Source of the DNA: an uncultured Candidatus Saccharibacteria bacterium
GTDB lineage: Bacteria; Patescibacteriota; Saccharimonadia; UBA4664; CAZJNH01
Reading direction: 5' to 3'
Assembly (NCBI GenBank): GCA_964547425.1
Contig: CAZJNH010000001.1
Span: 5,295 to 69,294 of the forward strand
DNA length: 64,000 bases
Shown: in pieces, positions 2,438 through 45,041 of the stretch
How positions within the stretch are numbered: position 1 is the first letter of the stretch
Layout: each line of letters begins with the position of its first letter
Notes under the pieces: model-generated
Database searches by the model: none
What the model was told of the DNA's origin: nothing
What the model saw: the letters and a program-made list of their open reading frames with translations, nothing else
Program-made: the position numbers and the translations under genes

Positions 2438-4387
2438 ATGGCGAAGAACGTAGTTATCGTTGAGAGTCCGGCGAAGGCCAAGACTATTGAAAGGTATTTA
2501 GGTACCGGCTATAAGGTTTTGGCCAGCTATGGCCATGTCCGGGATCTGCCGAAGAGCCGGCTGGGCATCGACGTCGAGCACAACTACAAACCCGATTACA
2601 TTATTCCGCGCGGTTCCAGCAAACAGCTAAAAGCCCTGACCAACGAGATCGCCAAAGCCTCCGACATTTATCTAGCTACCGACTATGACCGCGAAGGGGA
2701 GGCCATCGCTTGGCATATATTAGAAGCCATCCCGCCCCAGAAAAACCAGAAGGTCCACCGCATCACCTTTACCGAAATTACCAAGGACGCCGTCACCGAC
2801 GCCATCAACCATCCCCGTGACATCAATGAAGACTTAGTCAACGCCCAGCAGGCCCGCCGGGTGCTTGACCGGCTAGTCGGCTACTCTTTAAGCCCGGTTC
2901 TTTGGAAAAAAGTCCGAAGCGGTCTCTCCGCCGGGCGGGTCCAATCGGTCGCGGTTAAGTTGATCGTCGACCGTGAGCGCGAGATCCAGGGTTTTAAGCC
3001 GGAGGAGTATTGGTCTCTCGAGGCCGAGTTAAGCACCTCTAAGAAAGAGCCGTTCGTCGCCAAGCTGGTTAAGATCGACGGTGAAAAAGCTGAACCGATT
3101 GCTAAGGAAACCGCCGAGATGGCCGAAAAGGATTTAAACCAAGCTTCCTTTAAAGTAGCCAATTACGAAACCAAACCGGTTAACCGCAATCCGTTCCCGC
3201 CATTTATCACCAGCTCCATGCAGCAGGACGCATCGCGCCGGCTCGGTTTTACCGCAAGGCGGACAATGCGGGCCGCGCAGTCGCTGTATGAAGACGGCCA
3301 CATTACCTATATGCGTACCGATAGCTACACTATTAGCAATCAGGCCCAGTCCCAAATCCTAGCCCAAATCACCAAACAGTTCGGCAAGCAGTACGCCGAG
3401 GGACGGCAATTCAAAAAAGCTGTCCGCGGCGCGCAGGAGGCCCACGAAGCTATCCGGATCACCAATCCCGCCGCCCAGGCCAAGGATCTAGGTGTCGATG
3501 GCGACCAAGCTAAACTTTACGATCTAATCTGGAAACGTACCTTAGCCAGCCAAATGGCACCGGCCAGATTCATCCGCAAGACCATTGTCGTCGAGGCCGG
3601 GAAGTACGAACTGCGCGCCTCAAATGAAGAGCTTGCGTTCGATGGCTTTACTAAACTCTATCAAGTCGCGACCGACGAAGAAGAAGGGGAGAAGGCTCAA
3701 AAAATTCCTGAAGTTAAACCCAGCGACAAGCTAAACCTCGAGAAACTGCTCAAGGAGCAACATTTTACGACCCCGCCGCCGCGTTACAACGAAGCCAGCT
3801 TAATTAAGAAGCTGGAAGAGGAGGGGATCGGCCGGCCTTCGACCTACGCGCCAACGATTTCGACCATCATCGACCGGGGTTACATCCAGCGTGAAGCTCG
3901 GCAGTTAGTGCCCCAAGACACCGGTTTTTGGGTAACGGATCTGCTCTCGAAGCATTTTCCGGCTGTGGTCAACGAGAAATTTACCGCCGAGATCGAAGAG
4001 GGCCTGGACGACATTGCCGAAGGCAAAACCGAGTGGCAGCCGGTGGTCAAAAACTTTTACGAGCCTCTTAATCAATTAATTAAGACCGAGCAGATCGACA
4101 AGGTCGAGATCCCCGTGATTGAGACCGACGAAATCTGTGACGTCTGCGGCAACAAGATGGTTATTAAAACCGGCCGGTTCGGGCAATTTATGGCCTGCAG
4201 CGGTTTTCCGGCTTGTAAGAATACCAAACCGATCCTAAAGACTATCGGGGTGACCTGTCCGAAGGACGGGGGAGAGTTAATCGAGCGGCGTACCAAGAAG
4301 GGCAGAACCTTTTACGGCTGCTCAAATTACCCGAAATGCGACTACGCCACCTGGACTAAACCCAAAACCCCAGCCGAAACCACATAA
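2438..4387 (+). CDS. topA: DNA topoisomerase I
   Basis: 649 aa. TOPRIM N-terminus (VVIVESPAKAKTI), active-site region (TYMRTDS), C-terminal Cys4 zinc ribbons (CDVCGNKM..C, CPKDGGEL..C). Confidence 0.9.
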   Translation: MAKNVVIVESPAKAKTIERYLGTGYKVLASYGHVRDLPKSRLGIDVEHNYKPDYIIPRGSSKQLKALTNEIAKASDIYLATDYDREGEAIAWHILEAIPPQKNQKVHRITFTEITKDAVTDAINHPRDINEDLVNAQQARRVLDRLVGYSLSPVLWKKVRSGLSAGRVQSVAVKLIVDREREIQGFKPEEYWSLEAELSTSKKEPFVAKLVKIDGEKAEPIAKETAEMAEKDLNQASFKVANYETKPVNRNPFPPFITSSMQQDASRRLGFTARRTMRAAQSLYEDGHITYMRTDSYTISNQAQSQILAQITKQFGKQYAEGRQFKKAVRGAQEAHEAIRITNPAAQAKDLGVDGDQAKLYDLIWKRTLASQMAPARFIRKTIVVEAGKYELRASNEELAFDGFTKLYQVATDEEEGEKAQKIPEVKPSDKLNLEKLLKEQHFTTPPPRYNEASLIKKLEEEGIGRPSTYAPTISTIIDRGYIQREARQLVPQDTGFWVTDLLSKHFPAVVNEKFTAEIEEGLDDIAEGKTEWQPVVKNFYEPLNQLIKTEQIDKVEIPVIETDEICDVCGNKMVIKTGRFGQFMACSGFPACKNTKPILKTIGVTCPKDGGELIERRTKKGRTFYGCSNYPKCDYATWTKPKTPAETT

Positions 4388-6818: not shown

Positions 6819-7838
6819 ATGCCAAATTCCAGTTTCGATTATCAAAAAATCGTTGACTCACTACTAGCCAAGCTGCCAAAGGAGCGTGACCGGGACGTCC
6901 TGGCCCGTCGTTACGGGTTGGGATCTTCGGCTAGTGAAACGCTCGACAAAATCGGCCGCCGCTACGGAGTCACCCGCGAACGAGTCCGCCAAGTTGAACG
7001 GGCAGCCTTAAAACGTTTGGCTGGTGCAACCTCGGGCGAGATGAAGGCCGTCAACCAGCGTTTGGCAGCCGCACTGGCCCGAGAAGGAGGAGTAGCCGAG
7101 CTGTCTGCTTTTTCCGGAAAGCTCGGAGCCGAAACCCCCACCCAAAAATCCCAACTCTACTTTTTGGCGCGGTTGGCACCCGACATCGAGATCATCGACG
7201 AGAACAAAGAACTAGAAACGACTTTATTTGAACGCTCAGCCTTTTCGGCCGCCAAATTAACCGAATTAAGCCGCCAGCTCGCCGAGGCTTTTAAACGCCA
7301 TGGCAAGCCGGCTAGACTTACTGAGATCGCCGCCAAACTGCCCGCGCAACTCAGCCAATCTGCTCTGGGGAACTTAGCCTCCGTCAGCAAGAGCCTATCT
7401 AATTTCGGTCAGCTTTGGGGGCTAAAAACCTGGCCGGCCGTTAACCCTAAAAGCATTAAGGACCGGGCCTATTTGGCTCTGGCCCAACACTCCGAGCCGC
7501 TGCATTTTTCGGCTATCGCCATCCATATCGAAAAAATTACTCCTTCAGGCCGCAAAGTCACCACCCAAGCCGTCCACAACGAACTTATTAAGGACGAACG
7601 CTTTATCTTAATCGGCCGAGGCATTTACGCACTTTCCGATTGGGGCTACACCGCCGGCACTGTGGCTGATATGATTAAAGAAGTTCTGCGCGAGGAGCAG
7701 CCGCTCCATAAAGACGAAATTGTCAGGAGGGTACTTTTGCGGCGTCAGGTGAAGCAGGCAACCATTGCCCTGAACCTTCAGGAAAAAGACCATTTTGAGC
7801 GGGTCGCCAAAGCCACCTACCAGCTAAAGCACACATGA
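6819..7838 (+). CDS. sigma-70 region-4-like HTH protein with an uncharacterised C-terminal domain
   Basis: Residues about 20-70 match sigma-70 region 4.2 (RRYGLG...ETLDKIGRRYGVTRERVRQVERAALKRL). No regions 2 or 3 are recognisable, so the sigma similarity is limited to this segment. ATGA overlap with the downstream ATPase gene. Confidence 0.6.
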   Translation: MPNSSFDYQKIVDSLLAKLPKERDRDVLARRYGLGSSASETLDKIGRRYGVTRERVRQVERAALKRLAGATSGEMKAVNQRLAAALAREGGVAELSAFSGKLGAETPTQKSQLYFLARLAPDIEIIDENKELETTLFERSAFSAAKLTELSRQLAEAFKRHGKPARLTEIAAKLPAQLSQSALGNLASVSKSLSNFGQLWGLKTWPAVNPKSIKDRAYLALAQHSEPLHFSAIAIHIEKITPSGRKVTTQAVHNELIKDERFILIGRGIYALSDWGYTAGTVADMIKEVLREEQPLHKDEIVRRVLLRRQVKQATIALNLQEKDHFERVAKATYQLKHT

Positions 7839-10567
7839 ATATTCTAGGTTTTTTGGGCGAAATACTGCAGGTCGCTGGCCTGATACTGTTCCATTACTAC
7901 GGCTGGGTGCCTCTGGTCGGGGTGGTGGTTTATTTGACTTGGCAAAACCGGCGGCGCGTCGTGTGGCACCAAGGCATCGAGCAGTCTTTGCTATTAATTG
8001 AGGTACCGAAAGAAAATGAGAAGGACGCCCTAAGCGCCGAGCAAATGTTTGCCGCGTTGCATGGAATTTTGAGGCCCAAGTCCGATTTAACCAAGGAGGG
8101 CTCGCTCCAGGAGTACATCAGCTTTGAAATTGCCTCGATTGGCAACCGGATTCATTTCTACGTTTGGACGCCCAAGCACCTCAAAGACTTCGTCGAAGGC
8201 CAAATCTACGCCCAATACCCCAGCGTCCACATCAAAGAAGTCGAAGATGACTATGCCGGGCGGGAACACCTGAAAGGCAAGACCATCCTCGGAACCGAAC
8301 TGGCTCTAGATAAGGACCCGGTCCTGCCGATTAAAACCTACGAAAGTTTTGCCGTTGACCCGATTAGCTCGATCACCCAAGTGCTGTCAAAGCTCGATGA
8401 TGATGAAGAGATTTGGATTCAGGTTTTAGCCCGGCCGATCGAAGATGGCTGGAGCGAGGCCGGCAAAAAATTCCTCGTCGATTTGAAGGGCGGCAAAAAA
8501 GGCAAAACCCTTAAGGACGTTTTTCTTGAGTTGCCGCTTCACATAGTCTCAAACTCACTCCACGCCCTGGCCGCCCCGCCTGAAGAACCCAAAGAGGATA
8601 AGAAGGACGATAAAAAGGACGAGGATCCGACCAAAAAGTCCATCAGTGCCGCCGTTAGCGAAAAGGTGTCCAAACTGGGATACGAGGCCAAGATTAGATT
8701 GGTGTACCTTGGAACAAATAGCGAACAGGCTAGACTACGGATGCAGGCGTTAATCGGTTCATTTAAGCAATACAACACCTTAAATCTCAACGCCTTTGTG
8801 ACGACAGGGAACCGAAGCGACGAGGAACTGGTAGAGGAGTACCGCGCGCGCTTTTTCCCGCCGAAGGGTTCAATTATGAACACGGCGGAGCTGGCCAGTA
8901 TTTTCCATCTGCCGCACAAAAGCGTTGAAACCCCTAACATTGTCTGGAACACCGAACGAACTAGTGAACCGCCACCGACTTTGCCGATCGAAAACGAAGC
9001 CGACGCCGAAAACCTTAGTTTGTTTGGCCTTACCAACTTCCGCGGCCAGAGGCTTAAGTTCGGCATCAAGCGGCGCGACCGCGGGCGGCATCTTTATGTC
9101 ATCGGCCAAACTGGGACGGGTAAATCCATGCTGCTCCAGCTTTTGACTCTGTCCGATATCTACCAGGACCAAGGATTTGCCATCGTCGACCCTCACGGGG
9201 ACCTGGCCACCGACATTATGAAATATATTCCCGAGGAGAGGGTTAAAGACGTGATCTACTTCAACCCGGCCGACATCGAGTTTCCGATCGCCTTCAACCC
9301 AATGGAAGTAACCGACCCTAACTTCAAAAACAACATTTCCTCCGAAATCGTCGGCGTCTTAAAACGGATGTTCGAATCTTGGGGACCGCGGCTGGAGTAT
9401 ATTTTAAGGTTTACGATTCTGGCGCTCCTTGATTATCCGGATTCAACTTTGCTTGGCATTACCCGTATGCTAACCGACAAAGAGTTCCGCAAAAAAGTTG
9501 TCCGCGAGGTCCAAGACCCGGTGGTCAAAAACTTCTGGCTCAACGAGTTCGCTAGCTGGAACGACAAGTTCGCCAACGAGGCCGTCGCACCGGTCTTAAA
9601 CAAAGTCGGGGCCTTCACCGCCAACCCGCTGGTCAGGAACGTCATTGGCCAGCCAAAAAGCGCCATCAACCTGCGCAAGTTAATGGATGAAGGCAAGATC
9701 TTAATCGTCAACTTAAGCCAGGGACTAATAGGGGAGGACAACGCCTCCATCCTCGGCGCGCTAATGGTCACTAAGTTGCAGCTAGCCGCCATGAGCCGGG
9801 CCAATTTACCGCTCGACCAACGCCGGCCATTTTACTTGTACGTCGACGAATTCCAGAACTTCGCCACAGACTCATTTGCGGTCATTTTAAGCGAAGCCCG
9901 TAAGTATGGCTTGTATTTGACCGTTGCAAACCAATATATCGCTCAGATCGCCGAAACGGCCGTTAAAGACGCCGTGTTCGGCAACGTTGGCTCGATTGTA
10001 ACCTTCCGCGTCGGTGCCGACGACGCGACCTACCTTGCCAAGTACTTTAAACCGGTGTTTGAGGATACCGACATCGTCACCTTAAACAACCAACACATCC
10101 TGATTTCGATGAGTATCGACGGCGAGAAGTCTCCGCCATTTTCGGCTACCACCTTGATGATGCCTGAACCGGTCGAGGATATGAGCGCTAGCATTATCGC
10201 TCGCTCACGCCAGGACTACGCTAGCAGTAAGGCAGAGGTTACGGACGCGATCAGCAACTGGTCGTACGACATGCACCAAAAGACCAGAGGAGCAATGGAT
10301 GAGGAAGCGGCACCGGGCGAAGACGCGCCGGTTCGTATGGGTGAACAAAAAGCGAACACACCGAGTGAGCTCAAAAATCCGGAGCCTAGACCTGTCCAAC
10401 AGGAGAAAAAGCCTGAGCACAACAGAGATCATGATCGAGACAGGGATCGTCGTGATCGGCCAAAACACCACCAGCCGGAACCGAGAAAAGAGCAGCCAGC
10501 GGTAAATACACACAATCAGCCGGGCGAGTTGCACCAAGACGAAGTAGTGAAGCTGCACCAAGAATAG
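7835..10567 (+). CDS. membrane-anchored VirD4/TraG-family (type IV coupling-protein-like) ATPase
   Basis: 910 aa. N-terminal TM hairpin, Walker A (GQTGTGKS), DPHGD, Walker B (FYLYVDEFQNF), TraG/VirD4-like C-terminal region, and a charged low-complexity tail (DRDRDRRDRPKHH). No other T4SS genes are nearby. Confidence 0.7.
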   Translation: MNILGFLGEILQVAGLILFHYYGWVPLVGVVVYLTWQNRRRVVWHQGIEQSLLLIEVPKENEKDALSAEQMFAALHGILRPKSDLTKEGSLQEYISFEIASIGNRIHFYVWTPKHLKDFVEGQIYAQYPSVHIKEVEDDYAGREHLKGKTILGTELALDKDPVLPIKTYESFAVDPISSITQVLSKLDDDEEIWIQVLARPIEDGWSEAGKKFLVDLKGGKKGKTLKDVFLELPLHIVSNSLHALAAPPEEPKEDKKDDKKDEDPTKKSISAAVSEKVSKLGYEAKIRLVYLGTNSEQARLRMQALIGSFKQYNTLNLNAFVTTGNRSDEELVEEYRARFFPPKGSIMNTAELASIFHLPHKSVETPNIVWNTERTSEPPPTLPIENEADAENLSLFGLTNFRGQRLKFGIKRRDRGRHLYVIGQTGTGKSMLLQLLTLSDIYQDQGFAIVDPHGDLATDIMKYIPEERVKDVIYFNPADIEFPIAFNPMEVTDPNFKNNISSEIVGVLKRMFESWGPRLEYILRFTILALLDYPDSTLLGITRMLTDKEFRKKVVREVQDPVVKNFWLNEFASWNDKFANEAVAPVLNKVGAFTANPLVRNVIGQPKSAINLRKLMDEGKILIVNLSQGLIGEDNASILGALMVTKLQLAAMSRANLPLDQRRPFYLYVDEFQNFATDSFAVILSEARKYGLYLTVANQYIAQIAETAVKDAVFGNVGSIVTFRVGADDATYLAKYFKPVFEDTDIVTLNNQHILISMSIDGEKSPPFSATTLMMPEPVEDMSASIIARSRQDYASSKAEVTDAISNWSYDMHQKTRGAMDEEAAPGEDAPVRMGEQKANTPSELKNPEPRPVQQEKKPEHNRDHDRDRDRRDRPKHHQPEPRKEQPAVNTHNQPGELHQDEVVKLHQE

Positions 10568-14039: not shown

Positions 14040-15076
14040 AAAAGCTTCGTCCCAAAAAGCGCTATCATCAGCCCGACGGCGCCGCAAATCTGCCCAATTA
14101 CCCACAGCCGCATAGTTACCTTCGTTTCCGGCCAGCCCTTAGCAATGAGGTGGTGATGTAGCGGCGCGGAGATAAAGACCTTACGTTTAAAGATTTTCTT
14201 CGACAGGATCTGGATGACGCTAGATCCGGCTTCAAGCACAAACACACCGCCAATAATCGGCAATACAAACGCCGAATTTAAAAGCATCGCTACGACTCCA
14301 AGGGCTGTACCGAAGGCAAAAGCCCCGGTATCACCCATTAGAAAGCGGCATGGGAAAATATTGAACCAGGTGTAGGCCAAAAGCACACCAACCATGGTGG
14401 CGCAAAATCCCGCGATGCCGATGTTGCCGGTCAAAAAGGCGTAAACACCGAAGGTTCCAAACGCCGTTGCCAGTAGTCCACCGGCCAACCCGTCAAGTCC
14501 GTCGGTAATATTAACGGCGTTGGCGGTCGAGACAACCACCGCAATAAAAAGCGGAATATAGAGCCAGCCAATCTCATAATCGCCGAATGCCGGAACATGA
14601 ATCTGGCTGTAACCTAGTTTGTAGAAGAAATAAAGTGCGCCCAAGACAGCGATTCCGAGGATCAACAAAAGCTTCATCTTCGCTTTTAGCCCTCCAGCTA
14701 AGTTGCGGGAGCCGCGGATGTTAATGTAATCGTCAATCAGCCCAACAGCGCCGGCCGCCACCAAGACGAACAGCGGCAAGTAGGTTTGCGAGCGTGACAA
14801 ATTAAGCACCACCGTAACCACAACGGCTGCCGCGATGCCAATAATACCTGCCATGGTCGGAATATCCCGTCGATGCTTTTCGACTTGTTGCTGGTGGGCG
14901 ATCGGCGCCGCCTCCCCCGTTGTGGCGTGGGTCCTAGCTTTTTTCCACCACTGGCGCTTGAAAGCGAAATGTGTATAAACAGGTGTCAGCAGCATCGCCA
15001 AGATAAACGCGTAAACCGCCTGGCCGAAAATTTTGATAATCAAGTGAGCACTGCCAGATCGAAATATGGTTTCCAT
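14036..15076 (-). CDS. mraY: phospho-N-acetylmuramoyl-pentapeptide transferase MraY
   Basis: 346 aa polytopic protein in the MraY position of the dcw cluster, between ftsI and ftsW. Confidence 0.9.
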   Translation of the reverse strand: METIFRSGSAHLIIKIFGQAVYAFILAMLLTPVYTHFAFKRQWWKKARTHATTGEAAPIAHQQQVEKHRRDIPTMAGIIGIAAAVVVTVVLNLSRSQTYLPLFVLVAAGAVGLIDDYINIRGSRNLAGGLKAKMKLLLILGIAVLGALYFFYKLGYSQIHVPAFGDYEIGWLYIPLFIAVVVSTANAVNITDGLDGLAGGLLATAFGTFGVYAFLTGNIGIAGFCATMVGVLLAYTWFNIFPCRFLMGDTGAFAFGTALGVVAMLLNSAFVLPIIGGVFVLEAGSSVIQILSKKIFKRKVFISAPLHHHLIAKGWPETKVTMRLWVIGQICGAVGLMIALFGTKLL

Positions 15077-37923: not shown

Positions 37924-38024
37924 AAATTCCCAAACAAAAAAGGACTCCGAAGAGTCCTTTTTTGCCTTGCCATCTCGCGACAAGCGCCATAGTTACGGGG
38001 CCGAAGCCCCGCGACTATATTGCG

Positions 38025-39176
38025 TTATCGCTTTAAAGCCTTAAGTAAGTCGCGCTTAGAGCGGATCCAGGCCCGGGCAGAATATCCCAGAGCGCTGAAA
38101 CCGACTAGGCCGCCAGCCGCGCCTTCGGCACCGGTCTGCGGCAATGGGCCGCTAGGCAGGTGGCCGCCGCCAACGTTACAGTTGACTTTGCAAACCGGGG
38201 GCTTGTGGTTACAGTTGAACGTACAAACCGGAGGTTTACAGTTGTTCTGCTCTTGGCAGGTAGGCGGTTTACAGGTGTTAGTCTGCTCACAGGGCGGGGT
38301 TTGAGTGACGATCTTTACGATCGCAACGTCACACCCGTGCTGGTTCCCGTTAGCAGTGAAACACGCTTGGTTAGTAATGAACCCGGCAGTACTTTGGGTA
38401 ACTTTGACGGTGATGTCAAAGAACTTCAGTTTACCGGCCGCAATGTCTCCAAAGTTGGATTGAATGTGGCGGGTGGACGGGTTGCTAACTAACTCAACTC
38501 CAGCGGGCAGATCGTCGGTCATAACCACGTTCTGCATTACTGAAGTACCATTGTTGGTAATGGTGACATCGTATTTTAGGGTGTCACCGGTGTTGACCTC
38601 AACGGCGTGGGCCTGATCGTCGGCGGCGTGGTTGGTGTTAGGGTCGGTAGTCTCATCAATCACACGCTTAAAGATCTGGCCGAACGGGGCGGAAATCTGT
38701 TTTACGGGGTTGCCGCAAGATTTGATGATCGCCCAGTGGAAGGTACCACCAGAAACGTTAACGAACGCCGGCAACGAGTTGCTGACGAACGACACTGAAG
38801 TCGGGCGCATCCACAGGCTGCCGTCATGGACGGAACCTTGCAGGAATTCGCGGCCTGAGCTCCAGACGTTGGTGGCTACAACGTGACCATTTACGATCAC
38901 TTGACCGCTTTTGGTAACCGAGCCATCAACCGTTGAGCTGGACAAAATGCCAGCCTCGGTGATGCCGCGGCCTTCGTTGTAATAGATTTGTTTTAGGTTG
39001 GCGGAGCTGTTTACTCCGTCACCTTGGTTAATACGTTTAACTAAAGTCGCTTTGTCGCCCGCACCACCGTTCATCACGGCGTTGGAGCTAAAGTCAGCGG
39101 CCAAAACATGTTTGGCGCCAACAGCAATTCCGGTCACTAGCGCTAAGGCTAGTAAAATTTTCTTGATCTTGAACAT
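38025..39176 (-). CDS. LPXTG-anchored surface protein with Cys-rich CxPPxC repeats
   Basis: Signal peptide. C-terminal LPQTG followed by a hydrophobic stretch and a basic tail (sortase sorting signal). Four CKPP(T/V)C-type repeats. Strong SD (AAAGGAGG). Confidence 0.7.
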   Translation of the reverse strand: MFKIKKILLALALVTGIAVGAKHVLAADFSSNAVMNGGAGDKATLVKRINQGDGVNSSANLKQIYYNEGRGITEAGILSSSTVDGSVTKSGQVIVNGHVVATNVWSSGREFLQGSVHDGSLWMRPTSVSFVSNSLPAFVNVSGGTFHWAIIKSCGNPVKQISAPFGQIFKRVIDETTDPNTNHAADDQAHAVEVNTGDTLKYDVTITNNGTSVMQNVVMTDDLPAGVELVSNPSTRHIQSNFGDIAAGKLKFFDITVKVTQSTAGFITNQACFTANGNQHGCDVAIVKIVTQTPPCEQTNTCKPPTCQEQNNCKPPVCTFNCNHKPPVCKVNCNVGGGHLPSGPLPQTGAEGAAGGLVGFSALGYSARAWIRSKRDLLKALKR

Positions 39177-39314
39177 TAATGTTCCTCCTTTGAGGAAAAG
39201 TTTGTTAATTAATAGAAAGCTAGAAGCTAATCGCTAAAAGCTTTGTAAGGCTTTAAATGATGACAATGTCAAAGGGCCTCTGCCCTGCAGCCGAATAGTC
39301 AAAGATCTTCAAGA

Positions 39315-39366
39315 AGTTCAAAAAAGTGAAACTCCCGGGAGGAGGAGTAAGTATCCTCCTCCCGGG
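39315..39366 (-). terminator. intrinsic terminator of the GC-rich island operon
   Basis: Perfect 13-bp GC stem (CCCGGGAGGAGGA/TCCTCCTCCCGGG), followed on the minus strand by AGUUUCACUUUUUU. Confidence 0.45.
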
Positions 39367-39389
39367 TTACAGCTGATGCTGCGTTCGCT

Positions 39390-40322
39390 CTACGCGCTTC
39401 CGGCACTTGTGCCGTTGCCCGTAGAGCATGTGCCGTCCCCATTTGCGTGGGCATTGGGGTCGGAACAGTTACCGCCGCCCTGGTTCTGGTCCGGCTGTTT
39501 GCCGTTGCTGACCTTCCCAGGACCGTTGGTGTCACCCGTTGACGTCGGGTTGTTCGTCGGCTTGGTGTTGGTTGGCGTTGTTGTGCCACCGCCACCGGAC
39601 GGAGTCACCACGGTTGTTCCGGGGCTAACCGGAGTTACCGGTGCTGACGGGACCGTCGTCGACGTCTGCGGAGCCGTATTCCCCTGCGGCGACGAGGCTC
39701 TGTGGGGAGCCACGTTGCTGTCAGGCGTCGGTGCTTTGTTGGTCGACGGCGCGGCCTTGCCTTGCGGCTTGGCCGGTGCCGACACCTTCGGCGCCGGTTT
39801 GGCAACCGGCTCCGTACTGGTGCTGCGACCCGTGACCGTGGCAGCCGCGAGGGCCAGTACGATCAGCACCCACCAAGGCTTTCGGCGCTTGCGGGACCTG
39901 GCGGTCTCGAGCGTCGTGGTCTTGGTGCCCTGCGGCAGAGTCAGAACCTGAGTCTGCATTGCGGTCGTGTCGCCACGAGCCGTCCTGCGAATCAGGTCTG
40001 TGGCCACCGCCGTGACGATCGCCTTCTCTTCGACCGTCAGCCGTGGCTGGGGAGCCAGGTTGACCGTGCGAACCGCGAGGTTCGCGTCGGCCGTCGGCTC
40101 GACGATCGTGATCTTCGGCACCGGCCGGGTCGCGGTCTGCGCCTGCTGCGGAGCGACTCCCAACATCTGGGACAGCTCCTCGTTCAAACGCGAATCGCCC
40201 GGGCGGTCACCGAAGTGGTGAAGCCGCCTGATCTCCTCGCGCTCGAGCTCCTTCTCCGCCGCCTCCCGCTCGATGCGGACTCGGAGAGGATCCTTGTGCA
40301 GCGTTGAGCTTGCCATTGTCAC
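39390..40322 (-). CDS. island protein: N-in single-pass membrane protein with a Pro/Thr-rich disordered ectodomain and a C-terminal Cys motif
   Basis: 310 aa. Cytoplasmic charged N-terminus, TM (WWVLIVLALAAATV), low-complexity P/T/S-rich tail ending GNCSDPNAHANGDGTCSTGNGTSAGS. Strong SD (GGGGAGGTG). Higher GC than the flanks. Confidence 0.5.
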   Translation of the reverse strand: MTMASSTLHKDPLRVRIEREAAEKELEREEIRRLHHFGDRPGDSRLNEELSQMLGVAPQQAQTATRPVPKITIVEPTADANLAVRTVNLAPQPRLTVEEKAIVTAVATDLIRRTARGDTTAMQTQVLTLPQGTKTTTLETARSRKRRKPWWVLIVLALAAATVTGRSTSTEPVAKPAPKVSAPAKPQGKAAPSTNKAPTPDSNVAPHRASSPQGNTAPQTSTTVPSAPVTPVSPGTTVVTPSGGGGTTTPTNTKPTNNPTSTGDTNGPGKVSNGKQPDQNQGGGNCSDPNAHANGDGTCSTGNGTSAGSA

Positions 40323-40327
40323 CTCCC

Positions 40328-40927
40328 CTACTTTGATCCGGCGCTTTCGCCGCCGGTAACGCAGTTGCCGTCACCATCCGGATGGGTGGTATCGGCCGGA
40401 CAGGTCTCGCCGTGCTGGGCATCGGTTACCCGCTGCCCTTGGCTCTGGCTCGACGATGACGATGCTGAACTTGAATCGCCGCTCAGTGCCGGGAGGTTGG
40501 CTAATGCGCCGCCCGACCCGGAACTGCTGTTGCTACTCGAACTCGAACCGTTGGTTGCGGCCGAATTCGAGTTTGAAGCGTCAGACGAGGTACTGGAACT
40601 GCTTCCCGGAGCCGCCGTCGCCGATGGTTTCGGCGTGTAAATCGGCATCTGGGATGAATCGGTGGCCTTGGACGCGGGATCGAACACCGTGTGCGTCTTC
40701 GATCCCAGGAGGAAAAACACCCCGGCGATCGCGACGAACAAGAAAGCCACCCACGCCCAACCCTTGCGGTTTGCGGGCAGGAAGCGCTTCTCGTGCTGCT
40801 CACGCATGTCGATGTTCTGCGTCTGGTCCGGCGGCGTCTGGGGCACGGCGGGGATGTGTTGCGTCTCCGCGTGTGCCTGGTCATACGCTGCAGCCCACTC
40901 GTTCCGCTCTTCGGTACCGAGTGCCAC
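40328..40927 (-). CDS. island protein: paralogous single-pass membrane protein with a Ser-rich ectodomain and the same C-terminal Cys motif
   Basis: 199 aa. GTG start with a GAGGAGG SD. TM (WAWVAFLFVAIAGVFFLL). Ser-rich tail ending GETCPADTTHPDGDGNCVTGGESAGS. Confidence 0.5.
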   Translation of the reverse strand: MALGTEERNEWAAAYDQAHAETQHIPAVPQTPPDQTQNIDMREQHEKRFLPANRKGWAWVAFLFVAIAGVFFLLGSKTHTVFDPASKATDSSQMPIYTPKPSATAAPGSSSSTSSDASNSNSAATNGSSSSSNSSSGSGGALANLPALSGDSSSASSSSSQSQGQRVTDAQHGETCPADTTHPDGDGNCVTGGESAGSK

Positions 40928-41958
40928 TATGCCTTCACCTCCTCGTACGTGTGTGCGACGGCCTCAAGGATCTGATCTCTGTCGTAGCTGTCGTGGGCTT
41001 TGGTGAGTTCTTTCATCAGCTCACCTCTGTCTCCACCACCTCTTACGGCAGCGACCATCACGTTGACGGCCTTGAGGAAATCCTTATCCAGCCGCCAGGC
41101 GTCCTTGTCCTTTTTCTTGCGCCGTTTCGGCTTGTCGGGTTTGGAACCGTTGCTCGACGGCTTGGACTTGGAGTTGTCCTCCGGCAGCTTAGGTCGCTGC
41201 TGGAGCACGTCATCGCGGAGCTGTTCGATGTGATGAACGAACTCGCTGCGCGCGTTGTCGATCAACTCCTTGACCCGGTCGCCATGGCGGCGATCCCGGC
41301 GGTCAAGTTCGTCTTGGAGGCTCTTACCGAAATCGGTAAGCAGTTCCTCCACAACGGTTCGGATCGCGGCGATCGAGACAGACTCGTCGCCGGCCCGATT
41401 TGCGTCCGGCTTACTGCCCTGCTCGACCACTACGTTCCCCTTTCGGTTGGATTCTGGCCTGATCCGCAGCCCCTCGGACTCTCTCAGAGAGTCTGCCAGC
41501 GTGCTCGGGAGGAGCTCTCCCGACATCAATTGTTTCGCTACAGCGGTCTCCGGCTTGTTGGCCGGATCCTCTTGACGGCGAAACTCGGCATACTCTCTGA
41601 GGTACGGGACAAACTGCAATGCTTCGCGGAGGGCGTTGACGGTCTGGTTGCGCGAAGCACGTTTCGCGTTCTCATCGAGATCGCGATAGTACTCCAGCAA
41701 CCGTTCGAGCGTCTTCACTGCCGCCTTTGAGGGCTTTCCTGAAAACTTCACGTTCTCCGGCAACATCTCCCCGAGCAGGAGCTTGACCGCTAGTGAAGCG
41801 GCCTTCTCCTCTTCGAGATTAAAACCCGGCAGTTGCTCGACTAGCTCCAGCATATTGCCGAGGCAGTCGAGCTTTGCTTCTTCATCCAAGTTACCGGCGG
41901 CATCCTCTTTCTGGTAGGCCGCGGCGCCTTCTCGGATGACTTTTTTCACATCCTCCAT
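40927..41958 (-). CDS. island protein: charged cytoplasmic hypothetical protein
   Basis: 343 aa, no TM, highly charged. Strong SD (GAGGAGGTG). First gene of the three-gene island operon. Confidence 0.5.
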   Translation of the reverse strand: MEDVKKVIREGAAAYQKEDAAGNLDEEAKLDCLGNMLELVEQLPGFNLEEEKAASLAVKLLLGEMLPENVKFSGKPSKAAVKTLERLLEYYRDLDENAKRASRNQTVNALREALQFVPYLREYAEFRRQEDPANKPETAVAKQLMSGELLPSTLADSLRESEGLRIRPESNRKGNVVVEQGSKPDANRAGDESVSIAAIRTVVEELLTDFGKSLQDELDRRDRRHGDRVKELIDNARSEFVHHIEQLRDDVLQQRPKLPEDNSKSKPSSNGSKPDKPKRRKKKDKDAWRLDKDFLKAVNVMVAAVRGGGDRGELMKELTKAHDSYDRDQILEAVAHTYEEVKA

Positions 41959-42070
41959 CCCACCTCCTCATCCGGTAACCCAATCCGCCAATCAGGCGAA
42001 ACTTATTTTTCAAAGTTTTGCGCCCAGTCGGGCGAACAAGGCCTCGGTTTAAGAGGCGATTCGGTGATGC

Positions 42071-42156
42071 GTCTGTAGACAGTAGCCTGCCAGCGCCTTA
42101 CCTGGGCGGCAAGTAAGGGTGCTGGCAGATTGCTGCCTACAGACTGTTTTGGTTTT
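42071..42156 (+). other. orphan long imperfect hairpin with a 3' T-tract (terminator-like; possible small-RNA 3' end)
   Basis: GTCTGTAGACAGTAGCCTGCCAGCGCC ... GGTGCTGGCAGATTGCTGCCTACAGAC followed by TGTTTTGGTTTT. No upstream plus-strand gene. Confidence 0.3.
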
Positions 42157-42377
42157 AGGTCTTGATTGACCTTTGACTATTCGGCTGTCAAGGACCCGCG
42201 TTTTGGCAAAAATAAAACCCCGGGTCAAGCCCAGAGGATTGTTTGGTCCGCCCACATTATGTTGGCGATCCGCCTCACAGCTTGCCAGAACGTGAATGCG
42301 ATAAGCCTAGCATAATTCGTCAATCTTGTCAATGCTTATTATGCTTTATGCCAAAACTCTTATGGCTTTTTGCCAAA

Positions 42378-45041
42378 TTACTTCGAGTGAGCCTGATGTT
42401 CAGGAGAGTTGATTAATCCGCATTTTTTGTACTTTAAACCGCTTCCGCAAGGACAAGGATCGTTGCGGCCTATCTTCTTTTTAGAATCTAGTGGAGAGGC
42501 GCTAGCAACGAGAGGTTTGGTAGTAGTAACGCCTGATTGTTTGCGCGTTGCCGGTTTCTTTTTGAATTCCTCTCCCCCTCCGCCAGTCAAAGCTTTCTCT
42601 GCGGCCTTGGTTAAGGCCGTTTCTACCGGCGCTTGCTGCTGCTGCATCGTAATCTCAACCTTAAAGATCGTAGCGGCGATTTCAGCCTCCATCGCCCCAA
42701 TTAACTGCTGAAACAACTTGTAACCCTCAGCTTTATACTCCACTAACGGGTCTTTTTGCCCGACAGCTCGCAGTCCAATACCCTCCCGTAATCCGGTCAT
42801 AGCATCTAGGTGCTCGATCCATAAATTATCCATCACACGAAGATACGTTAGACGCTCCGCCAGCTTCATTAGCTCCTGGCCAACTTGCTCCGTTCGCCAG
42901 TCATACAAAGCCTCCGCATGCTTCATTAATATATGGACGACCTCCTCCGGCAGTGATTTCTTGATCTGGGCAATCAGTTTGTCATCGAGTGGCACGATGT
43001 TCGCAACCGCCGTCACCACTTTGTCGTGGTCCATGACAGTAGTCCTAACGTCGGTGTGGGCGGTTACGATAGCCTTAAATTCGCCGTCAATCATCTCTAT
43101 AATTTCGGGTCGTAGGTTCTGGTTCTCGAGAGCTTTGCGACGTTTGGCGTAAATCACCTCACGGTGGCGGTTCATCACATCATCGTACTCAACCAGGTTT
43201 TTGCGGATATCGAAGTTGTGGCCTTCCACCTTTTTCTGGGCGCTCTCGATAGATTTTGACACCATCGAGTTCTCGATCGGCGTGTCATCATCGATCCCTA
43301 AACTGCCCATTAGTCCGGCAATGCGCTCACCGCCAAAAATCCGCATCAAATCATCTTCCAGCGACACGTAAAACCGGCTAAAACCAGGGTCGCCTTGCCG
43401 ACCAGAACGACCTCGCAGCTGATTGTCGATCCGGCGAGCTTCGTGGCGTTCCGACCCAACCACAGCCAACCCGCCGAGCTTATCGACGCCCTTTTCCAGC
43501 ACAATGTCGGTACCACGACCTGCAATGTTGGTCGCCAGTGTAACCGCGCCCTTTTGCCCGGCGCCTGCCACGATCGTAGCTTCTTTCTCGTTGTTCTTGG
43601 CGTTTAGGATTTCGTGAGGCACCTTCAGTTGTTTCAAGAAACTGCCTAATAATTCATTCTTCTCGATCGAAACCGTACCAATTAGCACCGGCTGGCCCTT
43701 GTCGTGCATCTCCTTCACGTCCATAGCGATCGCCCGAAACTTGCCCTCTTCGGTCTTATAAATCTTATCGGGGAAGTCCTGGCGAACCATATCGCGGTTG
43801 GTCGGGATTACCACCACGTCTAGCCCATAAATTTTGTGGAACTCCTCGCTCTCGGTCTCGGCGGTACCGGTCATTCCCGATAGTTTCTCGTACAACCGGA
43901 AGTAGTTCTGGAAGGTTATAGTCGCCAGCGTCAGTGACTCCTGCTGGATGTGTACTCCTTCCTTTGCCTCAACCGCCTGGTGCAAACCCTCGCTCCAGCG
44001 CCGGCCGGGCATTAACCGACCGGTAAACTCGTCGACAATAATAACTTCGTCGTCTCGCACCACGTAATCCCGGTCGCGGCGAAACAACGCCTTGGCCTTC
44101 AGCGCCTGCTCGATGTGGTGAACCTCGTCGATCCGCCCCGCCTCATAGATATTATCGACTCCCAGAGCCTTTTCGATCTTGGCGATCCCCTCATCGGTTA
44201 AGCTCGCGGCTTTGAGCTTTTCATCCAGCGTGTAATCTTTTTCCTCATTTAAAGTCTCCGAGAGTTTCGCGAACTGATAATACTTGTCGGTCGACTCTTC
44301 TGCTGGAGAAGAAATAATCAAAGGCGTTCGGGCTTCATCAATTAAAATCGAGTCGACTTCGTCCACGATCGCGAAATGCAGCGGCCTCTGGACCATTTTA
44401 GCCACATCATCCACCATGTTGTCACGCAAATAGTCAAAGCCAAATTCGTTGTTGGTTCCGTAGGTAATGTCGGCCTGATACGCCTCTTGCCGGCTAACTG
44501 GCTTCAAGCGCTTGAGCCGCTCATCGTCGTGGTCCGGATTATTAAATTTTGGGTCAAACAATAATGCCTGCTCATGAATAATCACTCCGGTGGTTAAGCC
44601 GAGTAAATTATAAATTTCGCCCATCCAGCCAGCGTCACGTTGCACCAGGTAATCGTTCACACTGACTACGTGGACACCTTTGCCCGTCAGCGCGTTTAAA
44701 TACACCGGCAGCGTGGCCACCAGCGTTTTACCCTCACCCGTCTTCATTTCGGCGATTTTACCCTCGTGGAGCACCATACCGCCTATTAACTGGACATCGT
44801 AATGCCGCTGCTTCAGCTTGCGTTTACCGGCCTCACGCACCAGCGCAAACGCCTCCGGCAATACGTCATCAAGAGTTTTACCGCCGACGATCTCTTTCTT
44901 AAGCCGCGCGGTCTCTTTAGATAAATCCTTAACTTTCTCAAACTTGGCTTCAAGATCGTTGATTTGGGCAACAATCGGCTCCAGACGCTTCACCGCCTTG
45001 GCGTTCTGATCCCCGAGTAGTTTGGTGATTAAATTCCGCAT
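42378..45041 (-). CDS. secA: preprotein translocase ATPase SecA
   Basis: 887 aa. DEAD-like motor motifs and a C-terminal zinc-binding tail (CPCGSGLKYKKC). Confidence 0.92.
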   Translation of the reverse strand: MRNLITKLLGDQNAKAVKRLEPIVAQINDLEAKFEKVKDLSKETARLKKEIVGGKTLDDVLPEAFALVREAGKRKLKQRHYDVQLIGGMVLHEGKIAEMKTGEGKTLVATLPVYLNALTGKGVHVVSVNDYLVQRDAGWMGEIYNLLGLTTGVIIHEQALLFDPKFNNPDHDDERLKRLKPVSRQEAYQADITYGTNNEFGFDYLRDNMVDDVAKMVQRPLHFAIVDEVDSILIDEARTPLIISSPAEESTDKYYQFAKLSETLNEEKDYTLDEKLKAASLTDEGIAKIEKALGVDNIYEAGRIDEVHHIEQALKAKALFRRDRDYVVRDDEVIIVDEFTGRLMPGRRWSEGLHQAVEAKEGVHIQQESLTLATITFQNYFRLYEKLSGMTGTAETESEEFHKIYGLDVVVIPTNRDMVRQDFPDKIYKTEEGKFRAIAMDVKEMHDKGQPVLIGTVSIEKNELLGSFLKQLKVPHEILNAKNNEKEATIVAGAGQKGAVTLATNIAGRGTDIVLEKGVDKLGGLAVVGSERHEARRIDNQLRGRSGRQGDPGFSRFYVSLEDDLMRIFGGERIAGLMGSLGIDDDTPIENSMVSKSIESAQKKVEGHNFDIRKNLVEYDDVMNRHREVIYAKRRKALENQNLRPEIIEMIDGEFKAIVTAHTDVRTTVMDHDKVVTAVANIVPLDDKLIAQIKKSLPEEVVHILMKHAEALYDWRTEQVGQELMKLAERLTYLRVMDNLWIEHLDAMTGLREGIGLRAVGQKDPLVEYKAEGYKLFQQLIGAMEAEIAATIFKVEITMQQQQAPVETALTKAAEKALTGGGGEEFKKKPATRKQSGVTTTKPLVASASPLDSKKKIGRNDPCPCGSGLKYKKCGLINSPEHQAHSK

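Follow-up and report, generated by a model that had tools for sequence, protein, structure and literature searches.

What are two perfectly complementary 17-mers doing at the borders of a GC-rich block of genes in a saccharibacterial genome? The question is raised by a stretch of 64,000 nucleotides (nt), hereafter the window, from an uncultured Candidatus Saccharibacteria bacterium (assembly GCA_964547425.1, contig CAZJNH010000001.1, positions 5,295 to 69,294), in which CAGCCGAATAGTCAAAG at 39288-39304 of the plus strand is matched at 17 of 17 positions by its exact reverse complement at 42171-42187. Three co-directional minus-strand genes, g1 to g3, lie between the repeats, and a first-pass annotation had proposed that the whole was a transposon-like or recombinase-flanked cassette acquired from a high-GC donor. 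The observation itself was confirmed, including the raised GC content of the three genes (0.578 for g1, 0.627 for g2 and 0.660 for g3, against 0.534 ± 0.025 for 42 other open reading frames (ORFs) of the window), but the interpretation as a mobile or foreign island was largely rejected. We conclude that a hypervariable envelope operon is set here in a regulatory frame that is conserved and specific to the lineage. Read along the coding strand, the feature consists of a promoter, a first arm, a leader hairpin, two or three genes that are fast-evolving or reshuffled, a 3′ hairpin, a second arm and then the gene for a surface protein with a DUF11 domain. Saccharibacteria live attached to host bacteria, and because of this their envelope proteins, most of which are unannotated orphans, are likely to be determinants of host range. 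Here such genes stand within a defined frame of promoter, new leader RNA, arm pair and 3′ hairpins, and they differ wholly between genomes whose core proteins are 73-92% identical.

Two complementary arms

The repeat extends beyond the 17-mers. An inverted-repeat search lengthens it to 20 nt at 95% identity, and when a bulge and G·U pairs are counted the complementarity reaches about 35-40 nt; two complementary arms, each about 30 nt long, have the 17-mers as their conserved core. The upstream arm (arm 1, IR-L) lies at 42153-42196 on the minus strand, in a 44-nt block that is 100% identical in the closest relative, L002, and the downstream arm (arm 2, IR-R) lies at 39283-39315 on the same strand. 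Along the 64-kb strand arm 2 is the best RNA-duplex partner of arm 1, with a free energy of -53.7 kcal/mol compared with -20.8 ± 4.7 kcal/mol for random windows (z about -7).

The pair occurs once in the window. When the 64 kb were scanned for the 17-mer with up to three mismatches, three matches were found where 0.15 would be expected from shuffled sequence, and the earlier statement that the repeats are not a product of chance holds. The third match (44423-44439, three mismatches) was considered as a further copy of the repeat and discarded. It encodes a conserved peptide, and because it lies inside secA and the same stretch recurs in the secA genes of unrelated genomes, we regard it as a coding coincidence.

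It can be seen from the four genomes in which the locus is complete (the window, L002, L006 and L041) that the arms change as the two sides of a helix would. All 18 core pairs are paired in all four, and five of them have changed on both sides; in L041, for example, ATAGTCAAAG has been replaced by ACAGTCATAG in the one arm as in the other. Of 500 shuffles, only 1-4 reached the observed covariation values, and controls in which the arms were slid out of register gave 27-45% pairing. The variable distal positions also remain complementary, and the pairing runs on outward with different sequences in different genomes, giving duplexes of 28-40 bp and -44 to -54 kcal/mol. Wherever the in-register helix departs from Watson-Crick pairing, the departure is a G·U pair on the coding strand (six cells) and never a C·A mismatch. 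Because the arm differences are of this kind, the sense RNA duplex is more stable than the antisense duplex, by 5.6-10.6 kcal/mol in four of four genomes (-53.7 against -47.4, -52.8 against -47.2, -44.2 against -37.6 and -50.3 against -39.7 kcal/mol).

We propose that the arms pair in the RNA to give a long-range stem of 30-40 bp that encloses the cassette and serves processing by an RNase III-type enzyme, a reading to which we assign a probability of roughly 45%. The pairing of the arms is an observation; that they are co-transcribed, that the duplex is cut and that regulation results is what we infer from it. Transcription from the upstream promoter would pass through the cassette, arm 1 in the 5′ leader would pair with arm 2 behind the cassette, and the resulting stem would loop out or excise the cassette mRNA, capped by its 5′ and 3′ hairpins. 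The outcome would be to set how strongly the cassette and surface-protein messages are expressed, or how stable they are, relative to each other. Duplexes of this kind are cut by RNase III around ribosomal RNAs (rRNAs) and in phage T7 and lambda transcripts. The arms resemble the stems of the 16S and 23S rRNA precursors, of T7 early mRNAs and of lambda sib retroregulation in that complementary stretches of at least 20 nt, kilobases apart, enclose a functional RNA, that complementarity is held by compensatory change with G·U pairs tolerated, and that protective hairpins stand at the ends. They differ in that the enclosed RNA is a protein-coding orphan operon and the core is also conserved in sequence, and in that cleavage and co-transcription are here only presumed. 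If this reading is correct, the locus would be a clear example of a protein-coding operon that is subject to rRNA-style long-range processing in a CPR (candidate phyla radiation) bacterium.

Conservation of the core sequence raises a different explanation, namely that each arm binds the same DNA-binding regulator, possibly with looping of the DNA between them, and that the paired operators so formed control both the cassette and the surface-protein gene. Within the core, 10 nt (CTTTGACTAT) are conserved in seven of eight loci, and arm 1 contains an internal palindrome, TTGAC-N9-GTCAA. The position of arm 2 would also suit an activator, as it lies about 30 nt upstream of a -35-like TTGACA (P2, 39255-39272, minus strand) ahead of the surface-protein gene. 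This putative element is conserved between the window and L002, is followed by a weak -10 in the window, and has comparable counterparts in L042 and L048. Loci with arms keep the -35 but have a weak -10 before the surface gene, whereas the arm-less loci L037 (7765-7800) and L046 (430-462) have a strong sigma-70-like promoter there (TTGACA, 17 nt, then TAAAAT or TAATAT). However, independent operator sites should drift separately wherever the protein does not touch them, and yet the variable distal positions of the arms are complementary; the complementarity exceeds the core and is achieved through different sequences and G·U pairs; and no regulator gene is linked to the locus. We therefore consider paired operators unlikely. 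The 17-mer was also assessed as a sigma-70 promoter in its own right, and this was rejected because in no locus is it followed by a -10 element at the right spacing.

A conserved frame around differing genes

Along the minus strand the order of genes is serS, hpf, secA, the segment, the DUF11 protein gene, prfB, a gene for an M23 peptidase, ftsE and ftsX. The closest relatives of the encoded SecA are in metagenome-assembled genomes (MAGs) of Candidatus Saccharibacteria/Saccharimonadia, as expected from the Saccharibacteria-like host suggested at first pass. A Pfam scan of 50 window ORFs found housekeeping genes together with DprA and RecO, but no transposase, integrase, invertase, recombinase or reverse transcriptase, which argues against the proposed recombinase-flanked module.

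In L002 (SecA 84%, PrfB 73% and FtsE 92% identical to the window) the equivalent site holds a different GC-rich three-gene block, bounded by the 17-mer, which is exact at one end and has a single mismatch at the opposite end. No similarity between the cassette proteins of the two genomes was found by BLASTP. The non-coding DNA behaves differently: the promoter-like element, the 44-nt block of the upstream arm and a long leader hairpin are conserved, and the second of these, together with 32 nt at the apex of the third, is 100% identical. Similarity ends immediately after the hairpin and returns about 10 nt ahead of the downstream arm.

The arm pair and a cassette are found directly upstream of the DUF11 gene in all four complete loci, including the more distant L006 and L041 (SecA 64% and 65% identical to the window). 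In these two, murD and the gene for an M16 peptidase lie between secA and the module (the L041 contig is 1.09 Mb long), after which the order is promoter, arm, cassette (three orphan genes in L006, two in L041), GC-rich hairpin, second arm and DUF11 gene. In L006 the first arm is, in addition, followed by the leader hairpin. Neither region has an inverted repeat longer than its arm pair (31-32 nt, 84-88% complementary). A Joint Genome Institute (JGI) contig, for which a gene listing but no DNA was available, likewise reads M16, three genes without Pfam match, and then DUF11. From this gene order in L006, L041 and the JGI contig it follows that the module goes with the surface-protein gene rather than with secA. 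In the truncated contigs L039, L040, L042 and L048 only the downstream arm is visible, in the same place ahead of the DUF11 gene and with the end of a very GC-rich gene before it. We conclude that the locus is vertically inherited and lineage-specific, being present in some Saccharimonadia, and that the arms are not the ends of a mobile element.

The element from which transcription would start, P, lies at 42304-42332 on the minus strand and consists of TTGACA, a 17-nt spacer and TAGGCT, with TRTG upstream of the second hexamer. It is conserved between the window and L002, and the pattern TTGACA...TRTGnTAnnnT is also present in L006, L041, L043, L044, L004 and L005, that is, at filled and empty loci alike; its activity as a promoter is predicted from this sequence pattern. 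As a separate observation, the -35 and spacer of the promoter in L004, a cassette-free locus (TTGACTATTTTCGACT, within 14950-14985), resemble the core of the downstream arm in L042 (TTGACTATTCGACT, 18-34). The likeness could be due to chance, or could be a hint that an arm was derived from a promoter.

Inside the arm pair and upstream of the cassette lies the leader hairpin (42071-42144, minus strand; conserved loop UUGCCGCCCAGG), with copies in L002 (3559-3624), L006 (8734-8793), L004 (14989-15050), L005 (13979-14040) and L044 (4182-4244). These are about 65-75 nt long and have in common the apical loop UGCCGCCCA(G/U)G. When the six sequences were compared, 95.5% of cells were paired and 13 of the 19 pairs had changed on both sides; none of 500 shuffles reached the observed value, and slid controls gave 31-49% pairing. 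Several of the pairs are G·U on the coding strand, and a covariance model scored 67-76 bits on the sense strand as against 19-30 bits on the antisense strand, with one copy per locus. Given the strong covariation and the G·U pairs on the sense strand, we conclude that the leader element is an RNA structure. A search of the hairpin and the arms against Rfam gave no match at the gathering thresholds and, at E ≤ 10, only chance hairpins of microRNA type; the leader hairpin is thus an undescribed structured RNA.

Relatives with an empty site proved informative about the first-pass idea of a mobile cassette. In L043, L044/L045, L004 and L005 the M16 gene and a promoter of the same type are followed directly by the surface-protein homologue, with neither cassette nor arms. 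Cassette-free sites therefore do exist, but in three of these loci (L004, L005 and L044) the stretch between the promoter and the surface-protein gene holds the leader hairpin, which has the loop UGCCGCCCAUG and directly precedes the gene; in cassette-bearing genomes this hairpin is inside the arm pair. Since the hairpin is present where arms and cassette are not, the arm-bounded segment is not the unit of insertion. The repeats do bound a module, in that gene content differs wholly between close relatives, and they bracket the cassettes of L002, L006 and L041 as well as that of the window, always in the same place.

Taken together with the composition of the segment, these results make an origin as a transposon-like cassette with terminal inverted repeats, or as an island from a high-GC donor such as an actinobacterial host, highly improbable. 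The perfect inverted repeat, the raised GC, the GC content at third codon positions (GC3) above the native level and the cassette-free sites of more distant relatives are what such an origin would give, and inverted repeats at both ends without a transposase within are also seen in miniature inverted-repeat transposable elements (MITEs) and other non-autonomous transposons with terminal inverted repeats. But the window contains no transposase and a single copy in 64 kb, and the sequences immediately outside the arms (gccctg and tcaagg) differ and form no direct repeat, so that the target-site duplication for which the first-pass annotation advised looking is not there. Unlike MITEs, the arms keep their syntenic position upstream of the DUF11 gene across genera, in genomes with SecA 64-84% identical, and enclose an element, the leader hairpin, that predates the cassette. 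Cassette proteins g1 and g3 lack homologues among 1.8-5.8 billion proteins, no phage or plasmid DNA matches, and a motif common to the cassettes points to descent within the lineage (see below). For scans of genomes the lesson is one of caution: a perfect inverted repeat that borders a compositional island need not mean mobility or foreign origin.

Arms of about 30 nt around about 3 kb are also typical of invertible segments of the Hin/Gin type, and the arms could accordingly be the sites of an invertase encoded elsewhere, which by flipping the 2.9-kb segment would uncouple the cassette from its promoter and so produce phase variation. The promoter-like element does lie outside the arms with all of the genes inside, and envelope proteins are usual targets of phase variation; the Mu G segment with Gin, the Hin segment of Salmonella and the invertons of Bacteroides share with our locus imperfect inverted repeats of about 30 nt, a length of about 3 kb and surface-related proteins. 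Nevertheless, four of four complete loci, from independent assemblies, have one and the same orientation, down to an asymmetric G/A position beside the core, and no recombinase is encoded within 64 kb. Covariation of the distal arm positions and mismatches that are strand-specific G·U pairs are not predicted for a recombinase site. In contrast to the known invertible segments, moreover, the genes here are co-directional, and the segment has neither an internal, outward-facing promoter nor an alternative gene copy or set. An invertible switch seems to us an unlikely account of the arms.

At the far end of the cassette is a GC-rich hairpin with a 13-bp stem (39334-39366, minus strand), which the first-pass annotation had correctly located. 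Hairpins of unrelated sequence end 11-29 nt ahead of arm 2 in seven of seven loci (the window and six others), with energies of -30 to -46 kcal/mol and z-scores of -2.7 to -9.3; four of the seven have no U tract after the hairpin. Separately, L041 carries three copies of GATACAGACCCGGCCATAGGCTAATC at 7725-7870, just ahead of its downstream arm, spaced by 51-56 nt and each in its own small hairpin.

The arm helix, the 3′ hairpin and the conserved upstream promoter together support the proposal that both arms are transcribed and form a stem. Several points weigh against this long-range RNA stem. Co-transcription of the two arms is assumed, and in the window and L002 a terminator-like hairpin stands between the promoter and arm 1. 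It was identified in the window by a consensus scan as a hairpin with a U run at 42208-42236 (minus strand); L002 has an equivalent hairpin and T run at about 3440-3475, and L006 and L041 lack it. This hairpin may be an attenuator of transcription. At the other end, a T run at some distance after the 3′ hairpin gives a terminator-like score in the window, and weakly in L002 and L041, so that hairpin and T run could stop transcripts short of arm 2. Just three or four independent lineages carry both arms, and because they are so few the leaning towards G·U is no more than suggestive (p about 0.1). Pairing by itself would not call for the sequence conservation of the 10-nt core noted above, which may be recognised by a protein or by an RNA acting in trans. 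In L037 a cassette of five orphan genes stands without arms; the arms are therefore not obligatory. The GC3 of the L002 cassette is far above that of the flanking genes (0.72-0.80 against 0.49-0.59), an excess for which the stem offers no explanation.

Content, composition and kinship of the cassettes

The first gene, g1 (40927-41958, minus strand), encodes a soluble, charged orphan protein of 343 amino acids (aa) that is predicted to be helical. The product of g2 (40328-40927, minus strand; 199 aa) contains a single transmembrane segment (residues 55-79) as well as a tail rich in Ser, the C-terminal sequence VTDAQHGET and a Cys loop. That of g3 (39390-40322, minus strand) is an orphan of 308-310 aa whose N-terminal part is cytoplasmic; it also has a hydrophobic segment (PWWVLIVLALAAATVTG) and a tail rich in Pro and Thr, and its C-terminal Cys loop is a paralogue of the one in g2. 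Each ORF is preceded by a ribosome-binding site of the form GAGGAGG or GGGGAGG, in keeping with the earlier description of three genes with GAGGAGG-type Shine-Dalgarno sequences, although for g3 the start is more likely to be the ATG at 40316 (308 aa), as in the public gene call.

Homologues of g1 were sought by a word-indexed search of 5.8 billion clusters and by a full HMMER search of 1.84 billion representatives, both of which returned the self match only, as did the homologue search with g3. Comparison of g1 to g3 and the cassette proteins of the relatives with Pfam, PHROG, NCBIfam and PADLOC gave no significant family, only sub-threshold matches driven by composition, and blastn of the segment DNA against phage and plasmid collections gave no match. 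An AlphaFold2 model of g1, built without an alignment, was unusable (predicted local distance difference test score (pLDDT) 45.7). Because g1 and g3 have no homologues, no donor, actinobacterial or other, can be named.

A high-GC donor is not needed, either, to account for most of the GC excess of g2 and g3. At native codon usage, amino-acid composition alone raises GC by 0.084 in g3, 0.066 in g2 and 0.009 in g1, and codon choice adds 0.025 to 0.042 across the three genes; for g2 and g3 a composition rich in Pro/Thr/Ala/Gly/Ser accounts for about two thirds of the excess. GC3 of g1 to g3 is 0.71-0.78 compared with 0.627 ± 0.045 (z-scores 1.5-2.5). Expression-linked codon bias was considered as the source of this and rejected, as rpsB, tsf and frr have a GC3 of only 0.61-0.63. 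The cassette block of L002 has a GC content of 0.61-0.63, and the GC3 excess of L006 is small. We conclude that the raised GC follows mainly from the low-complexity amino-acid make-up of the proteins, with a moderate GC3 excess that this does not explain.

Despite their unrecognisable sequences, the cassettes have a common architecture. Each encodes a soluble, charged, helical protein along with membrane proteins that have long Pro/Thr/Ala/Ser-rich tails, and in five of five complete cassettes one membrane protein carries the motif [ST]D(x0-2)HG in its last 35 or so residues. The motif is found at residues 168-176 of g2, residue 451 of L002 5388-6773, residue 322 of L006 10755-11816, residue 130 of L037 6044-6541 and residue 460 of L041 6082-7569, and often takes the form V[ST]DAxHGET (VTDAQHGET in g2, VSDAAHGET in L037) in proteins that cannot otherwise be aligned. 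Two matches were found in the 14,219 residues of other ORFs, a comparison made with a pattern that was drawn up after inspection of the data. Because of the common architecture and the C-terminal motif we conclude that the cassettes are diverged or reshuffled relatives and not random imports.

There is also direct similarity between two of them. The first cassette gene of L002 (L2_g1) matches that of L037 (L37_a) with E = 7e-8, although the genes flanking the L037 cassette are distant. The genes at L002 3651-4535 and L037 3369-4346 form a small family with 31% identity over 97 aa and a CxxC motif, and L37_a has a sub-threshold Pfam match (E = 9e-4) to a helix-turn-helix region like that of phage small terminases.

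The surface protein and possible exchange between genomes

Downstream of arm 2, at 38025-39176 on the minus strand, lies the gene for the surface protein, of 383 aa, which has a Pfam match to DUF11 (PF01345; 3e-13) and 78 homologues. Its order is signal peptide, conserved N-terminal beta-rich domain, DUF11 beta-sandwich, Cys/Pro-rich stalk, LPQTG, transmembrane helix and basic tail. In an alignment-based AlphaFold2 model, residues 30-290 have pLDDT above 90 and make up two beta-rich domains; a disordered Cys/Pro stalk and the anchor helix come next, and a fold search with this model found only generic immunoglobulin-like beta-sandwiches. The model is consistent with a wall-anchored, adhesin-like protein.

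In L002 the surface protein (6992-8122) has a different N-terminal domain and has in common with the window only the DUF11 part (29% identity) and the anchor, while other, far more distant loci keep the N-terminal domain of the window at 42-69% identity. The comparison suggests replacement of a domain or an allele beside the cassette. This difference and the kinship of L2_g1 with L37_a are, at the level of sequence, evidence of reshuffling. Uptake of DNA by natural transformation, and its integration through homologous recombination, have been documented in Saccharibacteria (PMC10633639), so that allele replacement of the cassettes is plausible; the alternative is near-neutral divergence of disordered proteins.

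Such replacement might be what the arms are for. The conserved flanks would then serve as homology for exchange of the cassette after natural transformation, at a hot spot of exchange whose raised GC3 would stem from GC-biased gene conversion. L002 fits this description in that its core proteins are close to those of the window and yet its cassette proteins are unrelated, its surface protein departs from the window where distant genomes match, its first cassette gene is akin to that of the distant L037, and it shares with the window the two identical blocks in the arm and the hairpin apex; DprA and RecO are encoded in the window. Yet 17-44 nt of homology is short for RecA-dependent exchange, the inverted orientation of the arms plays no part in such a model, and near-neutral disordered proteins would also lose detectable similarity at this divergence. 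As the function of the arms we judge recombination anchors very unlikely, but they are compatible with the long-range RNA stem and do not exclude it. More broadly, it appears distinctly unlikely that there is a dedicated system for switching or swapping envelope genes, whether by inversion or by exchange of cassettes after uptake, with the arm pair as its cis element. Were it so, the locus would provide programmed surface variation tied to host attachment, the GC3 excess would be a footprint of gene conversion, and the cassette would be of a kind not so far described in Patescibacteria.

Other variable loci offer partial parallels. O-antigen and capsule clusters with JUMPStart/ops also sit at a fixed site between core genes, have atypical composition and variable content, and carry a conserved non-coding leader downstream of the promoter; here, by contrast, the leader is a 70-nt hairpin with a loop of its own and not ops, the genes encode orphan membrane proteins and not sugar enzymes, and there is an arm pair. 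A locally hypervariable gene for a Pro/Thr-rich extracellular protein has been described in a Gracilibacterium, where the number of tandem 9-mer repeats varies within the one gene (PMC6851277). That case resembles ours in the CPR host and the hypervariable Pro/Thr-rich protein but differs in that no flanking inverted repeats were described.

Tests for further kinds of element in the window were negative. There are no tRNA genes, and the region has no long direct repeats and the window no reverse transcriptase domain, so the test for a diversity-generating retroelement failed. The integron test was also negative, as the window has no integrase, the repeats are inverted and enclose three genes and a leader, and the 3′ hairpins have no sequence in common. 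When metagenomes were scanned for the arm-plus-loop pattern two matches were obtained, both of them chance: one is a proteobacterial nar operon, and the other an unrelated contig of 1.4 kb whose coding sequence contains the two halves of the pattern. The same scan of viral sequences found none, and a look-up of exact SecA matches for alternative junctions found nothing on record.

The Logan contig L001 corresponds exactly to window positions 37945-42113, and both of its ends lie inside perfect hairpins. Other contig breaks, including the starts of L042, L049 and L038, likewise fall in hairpins or in DNA of 72-80% GC. The breaks near the cassette were considered as a sign of heterogeneity in the population, and this was rejected in view of where they fall. 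We take them for an artefact of assembly, by which the locus is broken up in MAGs and could escape comparative studies.

One minor feature of the surface-protein gene may be added. The stalk includes, just ahead of LPQTG, Cys/Pro-rich CKPP(T/V)C units, for which a tandem repeat of 33 nt at 38175-38237 codes.

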